DNA from: an uncultured Brevinematales bacterium
GTDB lineage: Bacteria; Spirochaetota; Brevinematia; Brevinematales; JAOACQ01
DNA length: 64,000 nucleotides
Direction: 5' to 3'
NCBI GenBank assembly: GCA_964413265.1
Contig: CAYPRX010000119.1
Span: 15,445-79,444 of the forward strand
Shown: in pieces, positions 1-38,025 of the stretch
Layout: each line of letters opens with the position of its first letter
How positions within the stretch are numbered: position 1 is the first letter of the stretch
The notes under the pieces: generated by a model
The model's input: only the letters and a program-made list of their open reading frames with translations
Databases searched by the model: none
What the model was told of the DNA's origin: nothing
Made by a program: the position numbers and the translations under genes

Positions 1-699
1 ATGCCTGTGATCATCAGGAGAAAGGTTTTCCATACGTTCCTTAGTAAAACTGCCACTTAGAAGGCCTTTATACATCGGGCTGTATGAGATGACCCCTATT
101 TTGGTTTTATAGCAGTAGCCTAAAATTTTATCTTCTATTCCTGGAACTATCATGCTGTAAGGCGGCTGAAGGCTTGTTATAGGATATATCTTCTCAGCCC
201 TTTCCATCTGTGAAACGCTGAAATTTGAAACACCACCATACCTTATTTTTCCCTCCTTTATAAGTTCCGAGATTGCCTGCCAACCCTCTTCGATTTCATT
301 ATCAGGATCAGGCCAGTGGATCTGATACAGGTCGATCGTATCTATACCCAGACGTTTAAGGCTGGATTCAGCTTCGTGTTTTATGCTATCCCTTTTCAGG
401 CTTCCGCCGAGATTACCCATACTGTCCCATACCCTTTCACACTTTGTAGCTATAATGGGTTTTTCCTTCATTCCCTTCAGGGCCTTTCCGACCATCTCTT
501 CTGAATGTCCCAGACCGTAAGCTGCTGCTGTGTCTATCCAGTTTATCCCGAGGTCAATTGCCTTAAAGATAGTCTGGATGGATAATTCATCATCCTGGGG
601 CCCCCATGAAAATTGCCAGCCGGCACCTCCGATGGCCCAGGTACCCAGGCCTACAGCAGTGATTTCAAGACTGCTTCTGCCCAGTTTTTTCGTTTTCAT
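1..699 (-). CDS. Aldo/keto reductase (3' end runs off the window)
   Basis: Not in the ORF track; translated by hand: MKTKKLGRSSLEITAVGLGTWAIGG...WIDTAAAYGLGHSEE...IATK...SLKRLGIDTIDLYQIHWPD...GVSNFS...LQPPYS. Has the AKR Asp/Tyr/Lys/His catalytic residues; AGGAG RBS upstream. Confidence 0.93.
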   Translation of the reverse strand, partial: MKTKKLGRSSLEITAVGLGTWAIGGAGWQFSWGPQDDELSIQTIFKAIDLGINWIDTAAAYGLGHSEEMVGKALKGMKEKPIIATKCERVWDSMGNLGGSLKRDSIKHEAESSLKRLGIDTIDLYQIHWPDPDNEIEEGWQAISELIKEGKIRYGGVSNFSVSQMERAEKIYPITSLQPPYSMIVPGIEDKILGYCYKTKIGVISYSPMYKGLLSGSFTKERMENLSPDDHRH

Positions 700-853
700 A
701 GAGTTCTCCTCTTAAATTATATTAACTTTACTTCATTAATATATCAATTTCAGCAATTTGTGTCCAGTCCAGCAGAGAATGTTCGCTGTATTGCATCTTT
801 TTTTCTTCATCGGTACTTAGATAAATATAAATTTAAGCACTTGGAGGTGCATT

Positions 854-1429
854 ATGAAAAGAGTATGCGCTTATGTAATAAGCATTGCGGCAATTCTTGT
901 CATAAACTCGGCAGGTTTCTCACAAATGTTTGATGATGGGCCGGGATTCTATCATCCTGGAGACGATCACTGGGGAATGCGCTTTTACCATCATAGGATG
1001 ATGTCTCCAGAACTCCGTGCTATTGTCGATAAACTAAATCTTGAAACCACTATTGAGACCTTCCGTGTAAACGTAGAAAAGGTAAGGCTGGATGCTGCTG
1101 AAAAAAAGATCCCCCTCAAAGAAAAAGCCAGGGTGACATTGGCGAATTTAAAAGAGCTCTTTAAAAAATACCAGAGCGATAAAACTGTTTCTAAGGATAT
1201 CGTCCAGGCCCTGAAAGATTTGAACAGTACGAGAATCGCCATACGTCAGATCAGTAAAGACAGTTTTACAAAGATTCGCGCCTTAAAGGAGGGACTTGAC
1301 AGCGATATAGACAAAGCTGTTGATCTTTATATACAGAAAATCTCTGCAGGGGGAAGTGAACTTGATGAACTCGCCAAGCACTTTAACGACTGGAAATTCG
1401 ACAGGGGCAGATTTCACATGGAACAATAA
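854..1429 (+). CDS. Exported helical protein with a His/Met/Gly-rich N-terminus (Spy/CpxP/ZraP-like architecture)
   Basis: GGAGG RBS, signal-peptide-like N-terminus, HPGDDHWGMRFYHHRMM segment, charged helical body, followed by a terminator. Confidence 0.6.
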   Translation: MKRVCAYVISIAAILVINSAGFSQMFDDGPGFYHPGDDHWGMRFYHHRMMSPELRAIVDKLNLETTIETFRVNVEKVRLDAAEKKIPLKEKARVTLANLKELFKKYQSDKTVSKDIVQALKDLNSTRIAIRQISKDSFTKIRALKEGLDSDIDKAVDLYIQKISAGGSELDELAKHFNDWKFDRGRFHMEQ

Positions 1430-1455
1430 ACAGTTTTCCCCAATAATACCCACTA

Positions 1456-1486
1456 CCCCGCCCCTCTGGATGGAGCGGGGTTTTTT
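1456..1486 (+). terminator. Rho-independent terminator
   Basis: ACCCCGC...GCGGGGT stem followed by a T-run, just after the stop at 1429. Confidence 0.75.
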
Positions 1487-1489
1487 AGT

Positions 1490-1648
1490 TTATGCAGTTT
1501 CATCAAAATTATTGCCGATTTCCGGTTCTTCCAGCCTGTGCTGCTGAACAGTATCTTCCTCCCTTTCAGCTTCCTCCGCTCTATTCTCCTCTCTTTGAAT
1601 CGGTTCCAAAACGATCTCAAGGGGCTGCTGTACCGGTGTGATAATCAT
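1490..1648 (-). CDS. Small acidic protein (52 aa), paralog of 6691-6894
   Basis: Below the ORF-track cutoff. MIITPVQQPLEIVLEPIQREENRAEEAEREEDTVQQHRLEEPEIGNNFDETA; AAGGA RBS; aligns in register with 6691-6894. Confidence 0.8.
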   Translation of the reverse strand: MIITPVQQPLEIVLEPIQREENRAEEAEREEDTVQQHRLEEPEIGNNFDETA

Positions 1649-1671
1649 ATAAATTTCCTTTTATTGTATAT

Positions 1672-1700
1672 AATCTAATGTCAAGACAGTAATATGTCAA
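1672..1700 (-). promoter_or_regulatory. Sigma70-type promoter for the small protein 1490-1648
   Basis: TTGACA-N17-TAGATT on the minus strand. Confidence 0.5.
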
Positions 1701-1710
1701 CGGTCAAAGG

Positions 1711-1739
1711 TTGAAATTTTATTACCAAGGCATTAAAAT
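1711..1739 (+). promoter_or_regulatory. Sigma70-type promoter for the MFS-polyprenyl synthase-menA-ndh operon
   Basis: TTGAAA-N17-TAAAAT. Confidence 0.55.
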
Positions 1740-1774
1740 ACTTATCAAATAGCGTCTTGATGGAGGAAAATACT

Positions 1775-3007
1775 ATGACTTCTCCAAAGATCAAAGTTTA
1801 TCCCTACAGGTGGATGATACTATTTTCGTTTATGGCATTGATGGCATTGCAGCAGCTTCTCTGGATAACTTTTGCCAATATCACGGTTGAAGCTGCAGCA
1901 TTTTATAATGTATCTGCAATCAATATTGGTCTTTTATCAATGGTATTTATGATAGCATATGTATTTATGTCTATACCTTGTTCCTGGTTAATCGACACCT
2001 TCGGGTTTCGCTTCGCTGTGGGCATTGGAGCTGTAATAACAGGTATTTTCGGCCTCCTCCGCGGAATATTCGCAAGAGATTTCATGATGGTTCTTCTCTG
2101 CCAGATGGGAATTGCAATCGCCCAGCCCCTGGTCATTAATGCTGTAACAAAAATTTCCTCGAGGTGGTTTCCAATTGATGAAAGAGCCACAGCGGGTGGT
2201 CTCTCATGGCTGGGGGCTTATGCTGGAATTATTATCGGGCTGACCTTAACGCCTTTTCTGGCAAAGAGTAATGGGATTGAAGGAATGCTTAACTACTATG
2301 GGGGTGCATCGGCAGCTATTGCCCTGTTATTTATATTGACTGCAAGGGAAAATCCCCCGACTTTGCAGAACCCTGTCGAACAGGAGGTAAGGACTTTAGT
2401 CTTTGACGGTTTGAGAAGGCTTGTGGTAAAAAAGGATTTCCTATTCCTTATGCTGATATTTTTTATCGGTCTGGGTATTTTTAATGCCCTGGCGACATGG
2501 CTTGAGGAGATCGTTAAACCCAGGGGTTTTACTTCTGAACAGGCTGGGATAATGGGAGGTCTGATGGTATTAAGTGGAATATTGGGTTCAGCAGTCGTTC
2601 CGATGCTATCGGACAAACTCAGGAACCGTTCTCGATTTATCCTGGTGGCGGTAGCGGGCTCTATCCCAGGGCTCCTGGGAATAGCTTTTTCTTCTAACTA
2701 TATTATTGTGCTTTTATCATCAGCAATTTTAGGTTTTTTCCTTCTCAGTACCGCGCCTGTCGGATTTCAATATGGTGCTGAAATAGCATATCCTTCTCCT
2801 GAAGGGACATCCACGGGGGTTCTAATGATGATGGGTCAGATTTCCGGGATCGCCTTCATTTTCGGAATGGACCTCTTAAAGTCGCCTAAAACCGGAGCTA
2901 TGACATTTCCGATGATATTAATGATCATTTTAATGATGATCTGTATTCTGTTATCTTTTTTCCTAAAGGAATCCAAACTTATTCAGAAGGAAGAAGGTGA
3001 ACACTAG
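1775..3007 (+). CDS. MFS transporter (FLVCR/SLC49-like N-terminal signature)
   Basis: About 12 hydrophobic segments, motif A-like WLIDTFGFR and MLSDKLRNR, N-terminal VYPYRWMIL. Start placed at ATG 1775 after GGAGG. Confidence 0.88.
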   Translation: MTSPKIKVYPYRWMILFSFMALMALQQLLWITFANITVEAAAFYNVSAINIGLLSMVFMIAYVFMSIPCSWLIDTFGFRFAVGIGAVITGIFGLLRGIFARDFMMVLLCQMGIAIAQPLVINAVTKISSRWFPIDERATAGGLSWLGAYAGIIIGLTLTPFLAKSNGIEGMLNYYGGASAAIALLFILTARENPPTLQNPVEQEVRTLVFDGLRRLVVKKDFLFLMLIFFIGLGIFNALATWLEEIVKPRGFTSEQAGIMGGLMVLSGILGSAVVPMLSDKLRNRSRFILVAVAGSIPGLLGIAFSSNYIIVLLSSAILGFFLLSTAPVGFQYGAEIAYPSPEGTSTGVLMMMGQISGIAFIFGMDLLKSPKTGAMTFPMILMIILMMICILLSFFLKESKLIQKEEGEH

Positions 3008-3019
3008 GGTCAAAGGCGG

Positions 3020-4033
3020 TTGAACTGTATGGTAATTCAGGAATTTTATGAAAATTACTGGGGACGGATCGAAAGCCGTTTTATCGATATTATAAATAAA
3101 GGAAATCCTCCACCTTCAGTCATTGAAATCGTACTTTACCATTTTAAGAATCCCGGAAAACGCATGAGGTCTTTTCTATCAACAGGATTATTATTATGCT
3201 TTAATCCCAAGATCAGTGAAGGTGAACTGGATTTTGCAGCCTCAGTAGAACTCCTCCATAACGCCTCATTGATTCATGATGATCTTGAAGACCAGGATTT
3301 TTACAGACGGGGAGAATTGAATGTCTGGAAAAAATATTCCCCTGTACAGGCAATTAACATAGGAGACCTGATTTTTATAAAGTCGATCGAGATTCTCCTT
3401 GCTTCTGAGATCTCAGAGAATATTAAACTGCAATTGATCAGGAGAACTATGTTAGCGATAAATGAACTCATTCTTGGGCAGATGCTTGAAATATCATTCC
3501 GGGACACAATGAATATGACATGGAATGATTGGGAAAATATAGCTGCTCAAAAAACCGGTGCATTGTTCCGATTAATTTTTGAGGGTGTATTTTTAATTTC
3601 GGGTATTGATATACAGACTTGCGGGGATGAATTGAAAGGCATAGGCAGAGTAATGGGAATTCTTTACCAAATGAGGGATGATCTAATTGACGCAATGGGA
3701 TTGAAAGAAGGAAGAAGACAGGGGAGCGATGTCCTGGAAGGTAAAATTACCTGCCTTTCTATTAAAGCAATAGAGAAGGGAGTGGAAAAAGCTCAAATAG
3801 TCCGGGAAATGCTGTTAAACTCAGAGCAATCGGATCATGATTCCCGGATAAACAGATTAATTGAATTATATGAAAGCCAGGGAATTTTATCCGAATTACA
3901 AAAGTTTTTTTCGGGGCTCCTTGATCAATGCCGGAGTCACCCAATAATAATAAAATTTCCTCAGATAAAGCCTGCTTACAATAATTTTTTGAATATGTTG
4001 GAGATACGGGATAAAAAAAGGGGAGAATCATGA
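3020..4033 (+). CDS. Polyprenyl diphosphate synthase
   Basis: GKRMR, FARM LIHDDLEDQD followed by RRG, KTG, SARM QMRDDLID, EGKIT. Confidence 0.92.
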   Translation: MNCMVIQEFYENYWGRIESRFIDIINKGNPPPSVIEIVLYHFKNPGKRMRSFLSTGLLLCFNPKISEGELDFAASVELLHNASLIHDDLEDQDFYRRGELNVWKKYSPVQAINIGDLIFIKSIEILLASEISENIKLQLIRRTMLAINELILGQMLEISFRDTMNMTWNDWENIAAQKTGALFRLIFEGVFLISGIDIQTCGDELKGIGRVMGILYQMRDDLIDAMGLKEGRRQGSDVLEGKITCLSIKAIEKGVEKAQIVREMLLNSEQSDHDSRINRLIELYESQGILSELQKFFSGLLDQCRSHPIIIKFPQIKPAYNNFLNMLEIRDKKRGES

Positions 4034-4935
4034 AAATAAAAAACCTGCTTGTGGCGGCAAGGATGCCATTTGTAACTGCCAGTGTTTTTCCGGCAATATT
4101 AGCCATTGTCTGGTGCGCTTTTGTAGCCGGAAAATTTAATCCCTGGTATGCATTATTATTAGTAATTGGGGTGTTTTTAGTTCATATCATGGCAAATACT
4201 ATTAACGATTATTATGATTGGAATGTTTCAGATGCATCAAATCCAAACGTCAGCCCTTTTAACGGAGGAAGCCGCAGTATAATAGGAGATCTGGTCCCCA
4301 GAAACCTGTTTTTATTGATCGCAATGGCTTGTTCTGTTATTCTCTTATGCATAGCATTGATTTTTATCTTAACAGGCAGATTTTTTGTACTTTATTTTTC
4401 TCTTGCTGGATTGCTTTTCGGATATTTTTATTCCTCTCCGCCTTTTAAAATGCATTCCCGAGGTCTGGGAGAATTATTTATTTTTCTGGCTTTTGGACCT
4501 GTTTTAAGTGCAGCCGTTTGCTATGTGATGACAGGAGTTGTCAGAAAGGAACATTTTTTAGTTGGGGTACCTGCAGGGTTAGCTACAGCAGCTATTTTAT
4601 GGATAAATCAGTTCCCTGATTATAACTCGGATAAATTTGCCGGGAAATGGAATCTAACCGTCAGACTTGGATTAAAAGCATCTCGTTATTTTTATTTACT
4701 ATTAATTATTTCAGTTTATATAGCTACTGGCCTGCTCATATGTTTTCAAATTTTCAGCATTTGGTCAGCTCTCATCATCATTTTGATTCCCGGAATAATA
4801 AAAGCCACTGGAATTCTTTTTAATAATTATAAAAATCCGAAAAAACTTCTCCCTGCACAGGGTTTTACAGTTCAATTCCAGATGCTGACAGTTTTACTTA
4901 CAACGGCCGGTATAATAATCGGGCATTGGATTTGA
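4030..4935 (+). CDS. menA: 1,4-dihydroxy-2-naphthoate polyprenyltransferase (UbiA/MenA family)
   Basis: NTINDYYD, GGSR, YSSPPF..GLGE, INQFPDYNSD..GK.NL.VRLG; multiple TM helices; ATGA overlap with the upstream gene. Confidence 0.85.
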   Translation: MKIKNLLVAARMPFVTASVFPAILAIVWCAFVAGKFNPWYALLLVIGVFLVHIMANTINDYYDWNVSDASNPNVSPFNGGSRSIIGDLVPRNLFLLIAMACSVILLCIALIFILTGRFFVLYFSLAGLLFGYFYSSPPFKMHSRGLGELFIFLAFGPVLSAAVCYVMTGVVRKEHFLVGVPAGLATAAILWINQFPDYNSDKFAGKWNLTVRLGLKASRYFYLLLIISVYIATGLLICFQIFSIWSALIIILIPGIIKATGILFNNYKNPKKLLPAQGFTVQFQMLTVLLTTAGIIIGHWI

Positions 4936-4936
4936 T

Positions 4937-6085
4937 ATGAAGATTATTATTGTGGGTGCTGGATTTGCTGGTGTAAAATGCGCAAAAAAACTGGCCTCTT
5001 TGAAGGGACATGAAATTACAATATTCAATAAAACTGATTATACGGCTATGCTTCCTTCACTGCCTGATGTTGCCGGGGGCAGGGTTAAAGAAAAGTTCCT
5101 TAAGGAAAAAATCGTCAGGCTCTTACCTGAAAATATCAGTTTTCTAGGAGAGACAGTCACTAATGTTGATTTAGATTCAAAAAATGTCTCTTCTGCTAAA
5201 AATATTTATCCGTATGATATATTAGTCCTTGCCAGCGGTGCTGAGGTAAATTATTACGGTTTTAATCAAAATCTGGATAAAATATATACTCTTGAAAATG
5301 TCGAAGACGCCTTGAAAATCAACAGGGAGATCTTAAAAAGGGCAAAGAATGGCAGTCTAAAAAATGTTGTTATATCAGGTGCGGGGTTCACTGGCCTTGA
5401 GGTTGGAGCGAACATACATGAAGCATTGAAATATTATCCTAATATAGCTATCAGGTTTATAGAAAAAACAAATATGGTCTTGAGTACTCAGGAGCCTCTT
5501 TTTGCATCTTATGTAAAGAAAGAGCTGGAAAGTATGGGACTTCTATTTTATATGGAAGACTATGTTAAATCCTTTGACGGCAATAAAGTCGTACTGGAAA
5601 GCGGAATGGAATTCGACAAGTCGGCCTTAATTTGGACAAGCGGCCTGAAGAGAGCCGTTCAAATCACCGGTAAAACAAAAGAACTGTCCAATGGCAGGCT
5701 TATTGTCAATAAGGACCTGAGAATTACGGGATACGATCATGTTTTTGCAATCGGGGATTGTTCCGCCTTTCTGGATCATGGGAATTATCTCAGAATGTCG
5801 GTAAATTATGCTCAAACAATGGGCACTATTGCCGGTGTGAATATAAAAAGACTCATCTATGATAAGCCTTTAAAAAATTACAAACCTTTTGATTTAGGAT
5901 GGATTCTGCCGGTTACTTATACAAGCGTAGGTTATGTCTTTAAACTAAGAATAAAGGGAAAGATTGGCGTAATAATGCATTATATTATTATGGGTTTTAA
6001 AAATTATAATTTGACCAATTTGATTGCATATTTTGGTTATTCATTAAAATTCTTTTTTTCCCGGAAGTTTTACAGAAATAAATAA
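4937..6085 (+). CDS. Type II NADH dehydrogenase-like NAD(P)/FAD oxidoreductase
   Basis: Two Rossmann motifs (GAGFAG, GAGFTGLE), YDILVLASG, VFAIGD. Confidence 0.85.
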   Translation: MKIIIVGAGFAGVKCAKKLASLKGHEITIFNKTDYTAMLPSLPDVAGGRVKEKFLKEKIVRLLPENISFLGETVTNVDLDSKNVSSAKNIYPYDILVLASGAEVNYYGFNQNLDKIYTLENVEDALKINREILKRAKNGSLKNVVISGAGFTGLEVGANIHEALKYYPNIAIRFIEKTNMVLSTQEPLFASYVKKELESMGLLFYMEDYVKSFDGNKVVLESGMEFDKSALIWTSGLKRAVQITGKTKELSNGRLIVNKDLRITGYDHVFAIGDCSAFLDHGNYLRMSVNYAQTMGTIAGVNIKRLIYDKPLKNYKPFDLGWILPVTYTSVGYVFKLRIKGKIGVIMHYIIMGFKNYNLTNLIAYFGYSLKFFFSRKFYRNK

Positions 6086-34824: not shown

Positions 34825-36537
34825 GCTTGCCTGGATATTAAACAGCTTTTTATAGATACCGCCCTGACTGAGGAGTTCAGCATGAGTTCCTATCTCGATG
34901 ATTTTACCATTTTCCAGGACGACTATCCTGTCGGCGTTCATAATGGTTGAAAGCTTGTGGGATACTATAAGCGTTGTTTGATTTCCAAGGATTCCTTTCA
35001 TTGCCTTTTGTATAAGCTGCTCTGACTTGGCATCCAGTGAACTGGTAGCCTCGTCAAGTATCAATATTTTTGGTTTTCTCAGAACAGCCCTTGCCAGAGC
35101 GATCCTCTGCTTTTCCCCTCCTGATAGCTTGACCCCCCTCTCACCAAGGATTGTTCCGTATCCCTGAGGCAATTCGCTGATGAACTGATCCGCATTTGCG
35201 ATTCTTGCCGCCTCTATTACTTCCTTTTTCCCTGCCTCAGGTTTCGAGAGCCTGATATTTTCAATGATTGATCCTGAAAAGAGTATACTTTCCTGAGTAA
35301 CCAGGCTTATCTGGGAACGGATGGAACCGGGATTATAGTGAGAAACGTCTTTCCCGTCTATTAAAAATTCTCCCCTGACAGGATGATAAAAAACTGGAAC
35401 AAGGGATATAAACGTTGTTTTTCCTGCCCCGCTTGGACCAACGATGGCCACAGTTTCTCCATGCCTTACTGACAGGTTTATTTTGCTTAGCGCTGTCCTG
35501 TCATTCTCATACTGAAAATAGAGCCTTTTCCATTCCAGGTCTCCCCTGATAGTACCAAAATCGGGGAAGTCCGTATTCTCTTTTTCCCTGGAATCGATCA
35601 GCTCGAATACCCTTGCACCGGCAGGCTGGAGTTTACGCAGCACCATTAAGATGTCAGAAATCCGGCTGAAAGGTTGTGAAAGCACCATAACCGCGAAAAA
35701 GAAATTAATTATATCCTGAGGCGTGGCTATACCCCTCTGGACACTGAGAGCTCCAAGAAAAAGGATAAGGAGGACGGCAATAACCCCGAAAAATTCAGAA
35801 GACGGCGTTCCCAGAAACCTAATTCTCATCTCCCTCTTTACTGCATTTAAATGAGAGTCGTTGGATTCAGAGAATTTCAGCTTTATGGATTCCTCGACGC
35901 CGTATCCCTTAATGATATCTATACCGTAAATGGCTTCCTCGATTCCAGATGTGATGTCCGATATATTTTTCTGAACACTGAGGCTGAGCCTCTGGACAAT
36001 AGCACCGAGGCTGGCAATTACAATGGCGATAACCGGGCCTATAGATAAAAAATACAATGATAATCTTGTATTAAGCACGAACATATAAATAATTACAGAT
36101 ATGAAAATCATCGGCTGCAAAAATAGGTCCATAGCAATATTCATGAAAAAGTTTTCTATAATACCGACATCATTCAAAATTCTAGACATAATTTCGCCAC
36201 TTTTGTTCTTTTTATAATAAAATACGGGCAAGTCTATGAGTTTCCTGAAGACATCAAACCTTATATCATGCATGACATTTACAGCCAGAGTATTGGATAA
36301 GAGGTATATGAAATAGTGGGAAAAAGCCCAGATAAAGCCAAGCCCCAGCAGCCCTGCGATTACCGTAAGGTTCACTTTTTCGAAATTCCTGCCGATAAAA
36401 GCGTTTGAAAAAAAATTACCTATTCCCAGGATACCGGCAATCTGAGCTCCAGTTATAATTATGACAAAAAAAAGATAAAACGCAAAATGAAATTTGTATT
36501 TAAAAGCGTAGCTCGAAAGACGTGAGTAGACTTTCAT
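34819..36537 (-). CDS. ABC exporter, fused permease/ATPase (MsbA-like)
   Basis: Six-TM domain, GPSGAGKT, LSGGEKQR, LILDEATS. Confidence 0.92.
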   Translation of the reverse strand: MKVYSRLSSYAFKYKFHFAFYLFFVIIITGAQIAGILGIGNFFSNAFIGRNFEKVNLTVIAGLLGLGFIWAFSHYFIYLLSNTLAVNVMHDIRFDVFRKLIDLPVFYYKKNKSGEIMSRILNDVGIIENFFMNIAMDLFLQPMIFISVIIYMFVLNTRLSLYFLSIGPVIAIVIASLGAIVQRLSLSVQKNISDITSGIEEAIYGIDIIKGYGVEESIKLKFSESNDSHLNAVKREMRIRFLGTPSSEFFGVIAVLLILFLGALSVQRGIATPQDIINFFFAVMVLSQPFSRISDILMVLRKLQPAGARVFELIDSREKENTDFPDFGTIRGDLEWKRLYFQYENDRTALSKINLSVRHGETVAIVGPSGAGKTTFISLVPVFYHPVRGEFLIDGKDVSHYNPGSIRSQISLVTQESILFSGSIIENIRLSKPEAGKKEVIEAARIANADQFISELPQGYGTILGERGVKLSGGEKQRIALARAVLRKPKILILDEATSSLDAKSEQLIQKAMKGILGNQTTLIVSHKLSTIMNADRIVVLENGKIIEIGTHAELLSQGGIYKKLFNIQASL

Positions 36538-36569
36538 TTTAAACCATCCCGGTCCGATCAGGTGGAATA

Positions 36570-36598
36570 ATAATAAATCAATGCGTTGTTTTTGTCAA
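36570..36598 (-). promoter_or_regulatory. Sigma70 promoter for the ABC exporter
   Basis: TTGACA-N17-TATTAT. Confidence 0.65.
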
Positions 36599-36629
36599 AA
36601 TGAACTTCTGTAAGTCTTCATCACTATTA

Positions 36630-36858
36630 ATTCCCCTTTTTCCTAGCGCCTTGAATCAGTAAGCTTGATTTACTAAGGCTCAAAACCGCTGCAAGTTGAA
36701 CTCACACAAACCCTGAAAGATATTAACTTTTTAAATGTTATTATTTTACGATTAACTTGATTGATTAACAGGGTCTGTGCTCGGACAACAACTTGCTTTT
36801 CGCAGTTATTCGCCTTGCAAATCTACACTTACTTCATATGTTGCGGAAAAAGGGGAAT
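36630..36858 (-). ncRNA. Candidate rod-shaped structured ncRNA (6S-like geometry, family unassigned)
   Basis: Seven or more nested helices, including a 14-bp terminal stem. Three positions are G-U on the minus strand but A-C on the plus strand. Confidence 0.6.
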
Positions 36859-36884
36859 AGGTGACTATAATCGTCATAAAACCA

Positions 36885-36912
36885 TTGAATTTTTAAAAAA
36901 ACAAAGTACAAT
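36885..36912 (+). promoter_or_regulatory. Sigma70 promoter upstream of the structured leader and hydrolase gene
   Basis: TTGAAT-N16-TACAAT. Confidence 0.5.
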
Positions 36913-36929
36913 ATTAACGTTCTGAGGAT

Positions 36930-37103
36930 ATCAGGCCGAATTTTAGTTTTAACCGAATTCCTGGAAGTAAATTAGGGTCGATGCTTCAGCAAAGATGATC
37001 CAATACGGGATATCGATGCATGGCATGGCAAGCCTGATTGCCGAGGCGAAAAACGTTGTTCACAATCTGCCAGCGTTTTTTGGCTATTTCTCTCGCCTCG
37101 GCA
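36930..37103 (+). other. Two abutting stem-closed domains in the ~210-nt region upstream of the hydrolase (candidate cis-regulatory RNA)
   Basis: ATCAGGC/GCCTGAT (36930-37038) and TGCCGAGGCGA/TCGCCTCGGCA (37039-37103). Confidence 0.45.
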
Positions 37104-37128
37104 GGGCTACCATTGGGGAAGAATACAA

Positions 37129-38025
37129 ATGATGATATACTTAATTATTTTTGCTTCATTATTTATTGTTTTATTATTACTGGTTAATAATACCCCGCTC
37201 TTTTATTCAGAGCCTTCGGCGTACGACAGGAATAATGAGCCGACCCTATTTGACTCCAGGGCAGAAGAGGCATTTTACGAAAACAGTAAATCGTCTTCAC
37301 TCATTATACTGGTTCATGGCTTTCCGGGTTCTCCATTCGAATGGGAGAGGGTTGGAAGATTGCTGTCAAAAGATTATAATGTCCTGATCCCGCGCTTATA
37401 TGGTTTCGGCACGACAAGAGAATTTTTTAGGAGAACCTATTTTTCACAATGGTACAAGAGTCTAATAGACATATACCTGGAATACAGGGAAAGATATGAG
37501 AAAGTAACAGTATGCGGTCTGTCGTTCGGCGGGATGCTGACCCTGAGACTTGCCGAGGATTTCGGGGATTCAAGAGAACTGGCGATGGAAAGGATTGTTG
37601 TCATATCGGCACCTGTATTTATAAATGACCCTCTTCATTATCTGGTCAGATCAATTTCATGGTTCATTCGCGACATCCCTTCATTCAGCTCTGCCGGGGA
37701 TAATATAGATAATGATGGGGCTGATTGGGTTGGTTTTTACGGGAAATTTCCTGTCCAGATCTACAGCCTTCTAATGGGTATGAGGACTACCAGGAAGAAT
37801 CTGGCAAGGGTCAGAATTCCAGCTCTCTTAATGCATTCTTCCGGAGACAAAACGGTCCCTTTCGCGAATATGGATTATATATATGATCATATATCTTCCC
37901 GGGTGAAGCATAAAATAGTTTATAATCTGGAAGGATGGAAACACAGGAAACACCTGCTGACGATGTTCAATACTACTTTTGAAGATGTCTACCGGAATAT
38001 TTTGAGATTCATCAAGGAGGAGTGA
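37129..38025 (+). CDS. Membrane-anchored alpha/beta hydrolase (carboxylesterase/lipase-like)
   Basis: N-terminal TM, VHGF, nucleophile elbow GLSFGG, GDKTVP, C-terminal His. Confidence 0.88.
   Translation: MMIYLIIFASLFIVLLLLVNNTPLFYSEPSAYDRNNEPTLFDSRAEEAFYENSKSSSLIILVHGFPGSPFEWERVGRLLSKDYNVLIPRLYGFGTTREFFRRTYFSQWYKSLIDIYLEYRERYEKVTVCGLSFGGMLTLRLAEDFGDSRELAMERIVVISAPVFINDPLHYLVRSISWFIRDIPSFSSAGDNIDNDGADWVGFYGKFPVQIYSLLMGMRTTRKNLARVRIPALLMHSSGDKTVPFANMDYIYDHISSRVKHKIVYNLEGWKHRKHLLTMFNTTFEDVYRNILRFIKEE

Follow-up and report, generated by a model that had tools for sequence, protein, structure and literature searches.

In the genome of an uncultured bacterium of the order Brevinematales (G000), the hairpin under study lies within the window, the 64,000-nucleotide stretch of contig C119 analyzed here, in the divergent spacer between an ABC-transporter gene on the minus strand and an alpha/beta-hydrolase gene on the plus strand, the latter being followed by flgG, also on the plus strand. 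This gene order is kept in three congeneric genomes (G001, G002, and G003), where the spacer between the transporter and the hydrolase genes measures 144-215 nt and contains no such element, as against 591 nt here. The short element-free spacers of the three congeners indicate that the window copy is a lineage-specific insertion, which left the promoter of the transporter gene intact: the left end of the element is situated 26 nt from the predicted promoter, upstream of its -35 box, and the same promoter-like site is conserved in G001 and G003, both lacking the element at this locus. For the neighboring genes this means that the predicted ABC-transporter promoter is outside the insertion and undamaged. 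No joint skipping the element was present in contigs of three DNA runs, and no polymorphic empty site was found in the reads.

Two other features of this spacer deserve mention. On the plus strand, at 36841-36871, the hexamer TTGCGG at the right end of the element is followed 19 nt downstream by a perfect TATAAT in the flank; this combination points toward the hydrolase gene and could work as a weak hybrid outward promoter, its spacer being too long for listing by a consensus promoter scan. A second imperfect hairpin (37031-37110, about -38 kcal/mol, arms TGCCGAGGCGA/TCGCCTCGGCA), single-copy in the genome and absent from the shorter spacers of the congeners, is located just upstream of the hydrolase start (37129) and embeds the terminator-like GCCAGCGTTTTTTGGC; it may represent a leader or an attenuator.

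All nested pairings that the original prediction had listed between 36630 and 36858 are present in the sequence, among them those involving GCAAGTTG (36691-98) and CACAAACCCTG (36705-15). The outer 14-nt arms (36630-43 and 36845-58) are 100% complementary, and the inverted repeats extend to about 25 nt. The preference for the minus strand was borne out by RNAfold, run on both strands: the minus strand folds with a minimum free energy of -82.0 kcal/mol (z -8.46, none of 200 shuffles being as good) and the plus strand with -70.5 kcal/mol (z -7.34), so the hairpin structure is far beyond chance. The claim that plus-strand A-C mismatches become G-U pairs on the minus strand holds as well, since the window copy, taken as the minus strand in the model alignment, has five G-U cells and no A-C cells. 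The consensus fold is one continuous rod ending in an AT-rich loop of 50-60 nt. The element has no conserved open reading frame, the sole one (54 aa) running out into the unique flank. As to the supposed -10 box in front of the 5' end, the TATAGT hexamer does exist, but it belongs to the flank outside the homology-defined end at 36863; TATA-like hexamers occur 2-7 nt upstream in the flanks of three of the six full-length copies, which agrees with a preference for AT-rich targets.

The whole assembly (2.40 Mb, 125 contigs, 40% G+C) was searched with BLAST and nhmmer. The search yielded six full-length copies and about five truncated copies or solo ends (Table 1), so the hairpin is no single-copy gene. 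The copies are 79-97% identical, the window copy being 95-96% identical to C41a and C6, and the family thus holds young subfamilies (95-97% identity) together with decayed and truncated members, including an internal-deletion derivative (C86) and the solo ends. A profile search additionally revealed a diverged sister family of three to four copies, which shares the inner hairpin arms with the first family and has different outer stems. The rod core, described by a covariance model (R1: 203 positions, 48 pairs, in the window's minus-strand orientation), is common to the sister family and to copies in six other genomes; in G000 itself R1 gives at least nine matches. A tRNA gene (L161:1327-1402, G000:C67) lies about 100 nt from the sister-family copy at C67:78565-78766.

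Table 1. Coordinates of the element, of its parts and flanking signals in the window, and of the other copies in the same genome.
Feature	Position	Strand	Remarks
Whole element, 239 bp, TATTAATTCCCC...GGGGAATAGGTG	36625..36863	.	Non-autonomous terminal-inverted-repeat (foldback) element, family 1; window copy (C119)
Left terminal inverted repeat TATTAATTCCCCTTTTTCCTAGCGCC	36625..36650	+	Family consensus TAATAATTCCCCTTTTTMCGCGCC
Right terminal inverted repeat ATGTTGCGGAAAAAGGGGAATAGGTG	36838..36863	+	
Conserved rod core, 203 model positions, 48 base pairs	36643..36845	-	Model R1, 217 bits; G000:C119:52087-52289, minus strand
AT-rich apex, 53 nt	36716..36768	.	Length kept between subfamilies, sequence variable
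GUAG of the near-invariant (C)GUAG internal loop, helix 1/helix 2	36823..36826	-	30-copy consensus; UGUAG in the window copy
Conserved asymmetric internal loop UUGUCCGAG, 5' arm side	36780..36788	-	Opposite GAGUU at 36699-36703
TATAGT (minus, 36869-36864) / TATAAT (plus, 36866-71)	36864..36871	.	Flanking DNA directly outside the right end
Promoter-like TTGACA-17-TATTAT of the ABC-transporter gene	36570..36598	-	11/12 consensus matches; outside the element
Full copy C41a	C41:680-906		
Full copy C6	C6:10222-10444		C6:10217-10449 up to the abutting 9-bp repeats
Full copy C53	C53:19510-19735		
Full copy C86	C86:19751-19948		Apex partly deleted
Full copy C41b	C41:97026-97254		
Sister-family copy	C70:1670-1934		
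Sister-family copy	C67:78536-78797		
Sister-family copy	C67:48680-48913		
Sister-family half copy	C67/C98 contig ends		

Repeats of this kind interrupt assemblies and are liable to be taken for sRNA genes. The GenBank MAG contig DASPQI010000009.1 (L047, positions 1-5739), deposited as a 'Syntrophales bacterium,' is 98-99% identical to G000 and joins pieces of contigs C80, C41, and C119, the C41/C119 junction falling exactly at the repeat; it is probably an assembly chimera formed through the element. The 'Syntrophales' label looks doubtful, as the flagellar genes (flaA, flgG) suggest a relative of spirochaetes. A 17-mer pattern scan of contigs gave chance matches, the query being too short.

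The ends of the element could be set owing to two copies that retain target-site duplications. C6 is bounded on both sides by the exact 9-bp direct repeat GTTGATTAC and C86 by GTACAGATG, in both cases at identical offsets, 5 nt outside the ATTCC.../...GGAAT anchors. When the right flanks were shuffled, repeats of 8 bp or more in at least two of six copies arose in 0.07% of the trials (P = 0.0007). These duplications place the ends of the element at TATTAATTCC...GGGGAAT(A/T)AG(G)TG and, by homology, the borders of the window copy at 36625 and 36863. C41b is flanked by a degenerate repeat, and no duplication is seen around the window copy, C41a, or C53.

Model R1 detected the core in relatives of G000 with very different copy numbers: 42 copies in G002, 14 in G003, seven in G004, and five in G001, all of the same genus, as well as seven copies in G009, representing a second genus, and four in G007, representing a third. 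It found no copies in five of the 11 other genomes of the taxonomic family, nor in 23 genomes belonging to other families of the order. Plain BLAST missed nearly all of the copies in relatives that were detected with R1. To judge from this distribution, the repeats have spread through this uncultured peat bacterium and other members of its taxonomic family.

Every copy that was examined lies between genes. With the elements taken in the orientation of the model, the neighboring genes are divergent in nine cases, convergent in six, co-directional on the same strand in five, and on the opposite strand in six, and such a mixture means that there is no orientation rule. No neighboring gene or protein recurs among the 25 loci of G002 or the 50 loci overall, and the local GC skew gave no sign of a replication-strand bias. 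The 3' end of an LpxL-like acyltransferase gene (loci L148, L143, and L178) is a site where the element is present in G001, G002, and G003; in G000 the corresponding place (C5:18150-18200) is taken instead by a canonical bidirectional terminator, GGGGCTGCAGTAAAAAGCAGCCCC flanked by T-runs. The three copies at this site are 72-80% identical, no closer to each other than paralogues are (the divergence being saturated), and the occupancy may be a result either of long retention or of repeated insertion at a hairpin-rich hot spot.

Several other observations were made around copies in the relatives. The locus L163 (G003:C3:583000-602571) consists of segmentally duplicated units, each made up of a DUF3467 gene, the element, and a LysM gene, with identical copies of the element; it also encodes a NADase_transloc-domain protein and an IS1380-like transposase (DDE_Tnp_1_4), and looks like a variable surface or toxin-related locus. 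The intergenic DNA of G002 is rich in repeats, and a further interspersed repeat, or repeats (..GGTCCTCGAAATGACATTAC TGCCATCGAAAA.., ..TAGTCGACAATCAT..), lies approximately 60-120 nt upstream of many of its elements (L165-L184). A cobalamin riboswitch (118 bits; L138:892-1067) was recognized about 430 nt upstream of one copy in G007.

The rod itself is supported by the pattern of substitutions. In an alignment of 30 copies from seven genomes, 94.1% of the pair cells are standard pairs, and both partners vary in 46 of the 48 pairs; covariation is scored at 0.694, as against 0.196 for column shuffles and at most 0.141 when the partners are slid by one to three columns. Figures of this kind are inflated by the fact that the alignment was fitted to the model. 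An independent MAFFT/RNAalifold analysis of ten copies found 21 of the 48 pairs compensated. The covariation supports the predicted structure very strongly. The asymmetric unpaired bases are conserved too, namely (C)GUAG between helices 1 and 2, a GA bulge, the loop UUGUCCGAG with GAGUU opposite to it, and CAAG near the 3' foot; homogenization of a palindrome at the DNA level would erase such features. On the model strand there are 48 G-U-type cells vs. 21 A-C-type cells, 15 of the 48 coming from two columns. This strand, corresponding to the minus strand of the window, folds better in 39 of 51 distinct copies, with a mean difference of -5.2 kcal/mol (Wilcoxon p = 1e-5, the copies not being independent of each other). 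The strand preference together with the conserved loops suggests that what is constrained is a folded single strand, either RNA or ssDNA, of the window's minus-strand polarity. Judging by these alignments, compensatory changes have preserved the rod fold in three genera, and it is under strong selection.

As for the termini, they differ between genomes, while the core is conserved across genera. In G000 the first family ends in the inverted repeats TAATAATTCCCCTTTTT and the sister family in CCGGAGGGTAATT.../ATAATAT; in G002 the stem extends to CCGGATTCAAAACAATAT.../...ATGTTGTTTGAACGG; and in G004 another 70 nt or so of stem adjoin the core at either end. In G003, G007, and G009, GTTTTCTTT and a hairpin of 15 bp, ..CTTTCTTTTG-loop-CAAAAGAAAG.., come after the rod on its 3' side. 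This short hairpin (e.g., L138:1715-1760 and the minus strand of L137) occurs 16 times in G003, six times in G007, and 11 times in G009, and is absent from G000, G001, G002, and G004. In G003, 14 of the 16 are directly 3' of a rod; over the three genomes most short hairpins are joined to the 3' side of the long rod, and several stand alone. The short hairpin may be either an independent REP-like unit or the insertion target of the rod.

We looked for an element from which the copies could be derived. A scan for matching inverted repeats accompanied by a transposase revealed no parent element in the genome; the same scan of JGI metagenomes returned two real matches, both from the same organism, the rest being due to chance; and no match to the element was found in plasmids, phages, or IMG/VR viral contigs. 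The missing parent IS is weak evidence, because the bin is 95% complete and copies of insertion sequences are often lost from bins. Among the repeats of the genome, self-BLAST found only an rve-type (IS481/ISNCY-like) insertion sequence with two diverged copies (G000:C103:4110-5430 and C105:3003-3971), ends TGTGTC...GACACA, and internal AAATGTCC repeats; it proved to be unrelated to the element. The same is true of the IS1380-like transposase from the G003 cluster, considered as a mobilizer. A tblastn probe with an IS200-type TnpA (Y1) protein gave only hits with E>=0.7, this being a weak test. As to expression, the organism occurs in peat metagenomes; the only metatranscriptome holding any part of the 3-kb region, also from peat, covers flgG alone, and none of the RNA runs was found to hold the element.

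The original prediction had offered two readings of the hairpin, a divergent 6S RNA or a new rod-shaped non-coding RNA. The former is refuted by the copy number and the empty sites: R1 matches the genome at least nine times, and in the congeners the site of the window copy is unoccupied. In addition, Rfam 15 at gathering thresholds gave no match in the whole 64-kb window; at E<=10 the region 36400-37150 gave only noise, with no RF00013 hit; and in twelve loci carrying related copies from other genomes the element matched no family, RF00013 included. The likeness consists in the overall rod shape and in arm lengths that are similar by eye, as had been pointed out originally, 6S RNA being a rod-like fold of approximately 180-200 nt. 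However, 6S RNA is single-copy and has a two-sided bubble that mimics an open promoter, whereas the center of the present rod is a one-sided terminal loop. The element thus lacks every testable defining feature of 6S RNA (RF00013 match, single copy, two-sided central bubble), and we regard this identification as having practically no chance of being right. Of the second reading, the rod-shaped fold with its strong covariation stands, but the hairpin is a dispersed multi-copy repeat and not a unique non-coding RNA gene. Many dispersed copies with target-site duplications (a MITE) had been named beforehand as the outcome that would refute the prediction, and dispersed copies were indeed found, two of them, C6 and C86, bearing exact duplications. 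The hairpin is thereby struck off the list of candidates for new regulatory RNAs or 6S genes.

We consider it probable that the hairpin is one copy of a MITE-like, non-coding, non-autonomous mobile family of about 240 bp, inserted in trans by 9-bp staggered cuts, and that its rod fold is constrained. The copies would be inserted by a DDE-type transposase producing such cuts, the enzyme being absent from the bin, and the rod, either as ssDNA or as read-through RNA, would be the feature that a protein recognizes; recognition of this kind would explain why the core outlasts the termini. By analogy with ERIC, Correia, and bcr1, the effect on the host would probably be a passive one, the hairpin hindering transcription or RNA decay in whichever orientation it lies. 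Counting against the MITE-like origin are the failure to find an autonomous parent, the lack of a clear duplication at the window copy and three other copies of the first family, the LpxL-like site occupied in three species, which may point to long retention, and the reads, which gave no polymorphic empty site as direct evidence of mobility. A further point is the asymmetry of the elements in G003, G007, and G009, which suggests a polar RNA or single-strand unit rather than two paired sites for a transposase. Ordinary MITEs, moreover, are conserved at their termini, whereas here it is the internal rod that is conserved across genera. The polarity, together with a core that outlasts the termini, is atypical of a MITE and constitutes the main reason why we keep the readings based on RNA or on an ssDNA ligand. 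The most far-reaching of these assumes that a protein confined to this lineage, either a domesticated transposase or one that binds RNA or ssDNA, has the rod of about 200 nt as its specific ligand, the repeat being a long-lived partner of its host in this spirochaete-like family after the fashion of REPIN-RAYT; this we think possible, if rather unlikely. The repeat would then differ from REPIN-RAYT in its much larger rod, in its invariant loop bases (GUAG, UGU..GA/AGUU, and CAAG), and in a mechanism that duplicates 9 bp, and its conserved core would have acquired different terminal modules from one genome to another. Were a dedicated protein partner real, the element would be a second persistent, structurally constrained mobile repeat besides REPIN-RAYT and would lend itself well to studies of the recognition of hairpin DNA or RNA.

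Another explanation would be a multi-copy family of independently transcribed rod-shaped sRNAs, encoded on the window's minus strand by genes that were duplicated or carried along and acting as protein sponges or regulators. The very strong covariation, the invariant unpaired bases, the consistent strand preference with its excess of G-U, the polar architecture with the 3' hairpin in three genomes of three genera, the TATA-like hexamers upstream of half of the six copies, and the LpxL-like site occupied in three species all agree with it. However, the copies share no conserved promoter or terminator and have unrelated flanks, the upstream hexamers belong to target DNA outside the duplications, truncated copies are common, the orientation to neighbors is random, the element has terminal inverted repeats and 9-bp duplications, and neither Rfam nor the RNA data (with the sole metatranscriptome restricted to flgG) contributed a match; we therefore hold this explanation to be improbable. 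Still less credible, in our opinion, is a giant REPIN-like element, that is, an ssDNA rod excised and reinserted by an enzyme inherited vertically, HUH/Y1 (RAYT-like) or otherwise specific for structure, element and host being associated over a long time. The near-invariant (C)GTAG at the inner hairpin foot (located between helices 1 and 2, inside the element and not at its end), the strand asymmetry, and a core persisting across genera with copy numbers from 0 to 42 speak for it; yet the length of the element is 5-10 times that of a REP, the TnpA probe (a weak test) was empty, the 50 loci share no recurrent neighbor gene, and no local GC-skew bias is seen. Moreover, Y1 transposition makes no target-site duplication, whereas two copies have exact ones of 9 bp. 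Finally, an integron-type attC site or a similar structure-specific site, although resembling the element in being an imperfect palindrome with conserved extrahelical bases, a variable apex, and strand-specific folding, and although the G003 copies are clustered between short genes, is very unlikely: that cluster is a segmental duplication of DUF3467-element-LysM units, the other copies are dispersed singly and in both orientations, no R''/R' GTTRRRY boxes are visible, and attC sites are shorter than an element of about 240 nt.

With the MITE-like family as the preferred explanation, the gain is a well-defined repeat family, provided with a covariance model, for an uncultured peat lineage, and it can be compared with known repeat systems. 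REP and REPIN-RAYT systems, which are lineage-persistent hairpin repeats functioning as a single strand (PMC3733652, PMC3337134), are resembled by the element in its persistence, its strand asymmetry, and a GTAG motif: REPs are tagged with GTAG at the hairpin foot, where RAYT cleaves (PMC3733652), and persistence with varying copy number has been described for REPIN-RAYT (PMC3337134; bioRxiv 10.1101/2022.05.22.493013). However, REPs are only 20-40 bp long, leave no target-site duplication, and need a RAYT gene, whereas the present element has 9-bp duplications and one weak tblastn probe detected no Y1 gene. REPINs measure about 100 bp.

The ERIC/IRU sequences and the Correia elements of Neisseria are intergenic imperfect palindromes as well, found in either orientation, and their parent transposase is likewise unknown. 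They come from a different phylum and are shorter than the present element (ERIC 127 bp, Correia 100-155 bp); Correia elements duplicate TA. Both are co-transcribed with neighboring genes and alter mRNA stability or processing (PMC3184786).

In general, bacterial MITEs are up to about 400 bp long, have terminal inverted repeats and target duplications, contain no transposase gene, and form a long stem-loop; some of them are transcribed, and bcr1 shows compensatory changes (PMC3184786; PMC11602168). MITEAba12 of Acinetobacter, related to ISAba12, is an AT-rich non-coding MITE that also makes 9-bp target-site duplications, only 40% of its copies keeping them, as against two to three of the six copies here (PMC6382973). 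It differs in its size of 113 bp, its 16-bp inverted repeats, its known parent IS, and the lack of an extended rod, whereas the present element forms a conserved hairpin over its entire length and the search for its parent was unsuccessful. Another parallel is bcr1 of the Bacillus cereus group (about 155 bp), also non-autonomous, dispersed, not conserved in distribution between strains, flanked by short direct repeats, and possessing a long stem-loop kept by compensatory changes (PMC3184786). The two have no sequence similarity; bcr1 has 5-bp duplications instead of 9-bp ones and was shown to be transcribed, and the present rod is longer and has a core conserved across genera. All in all, this is a MITE-like element whose near counterparts in kind are bcr1, ERIC, Correia, and MITEAba12.
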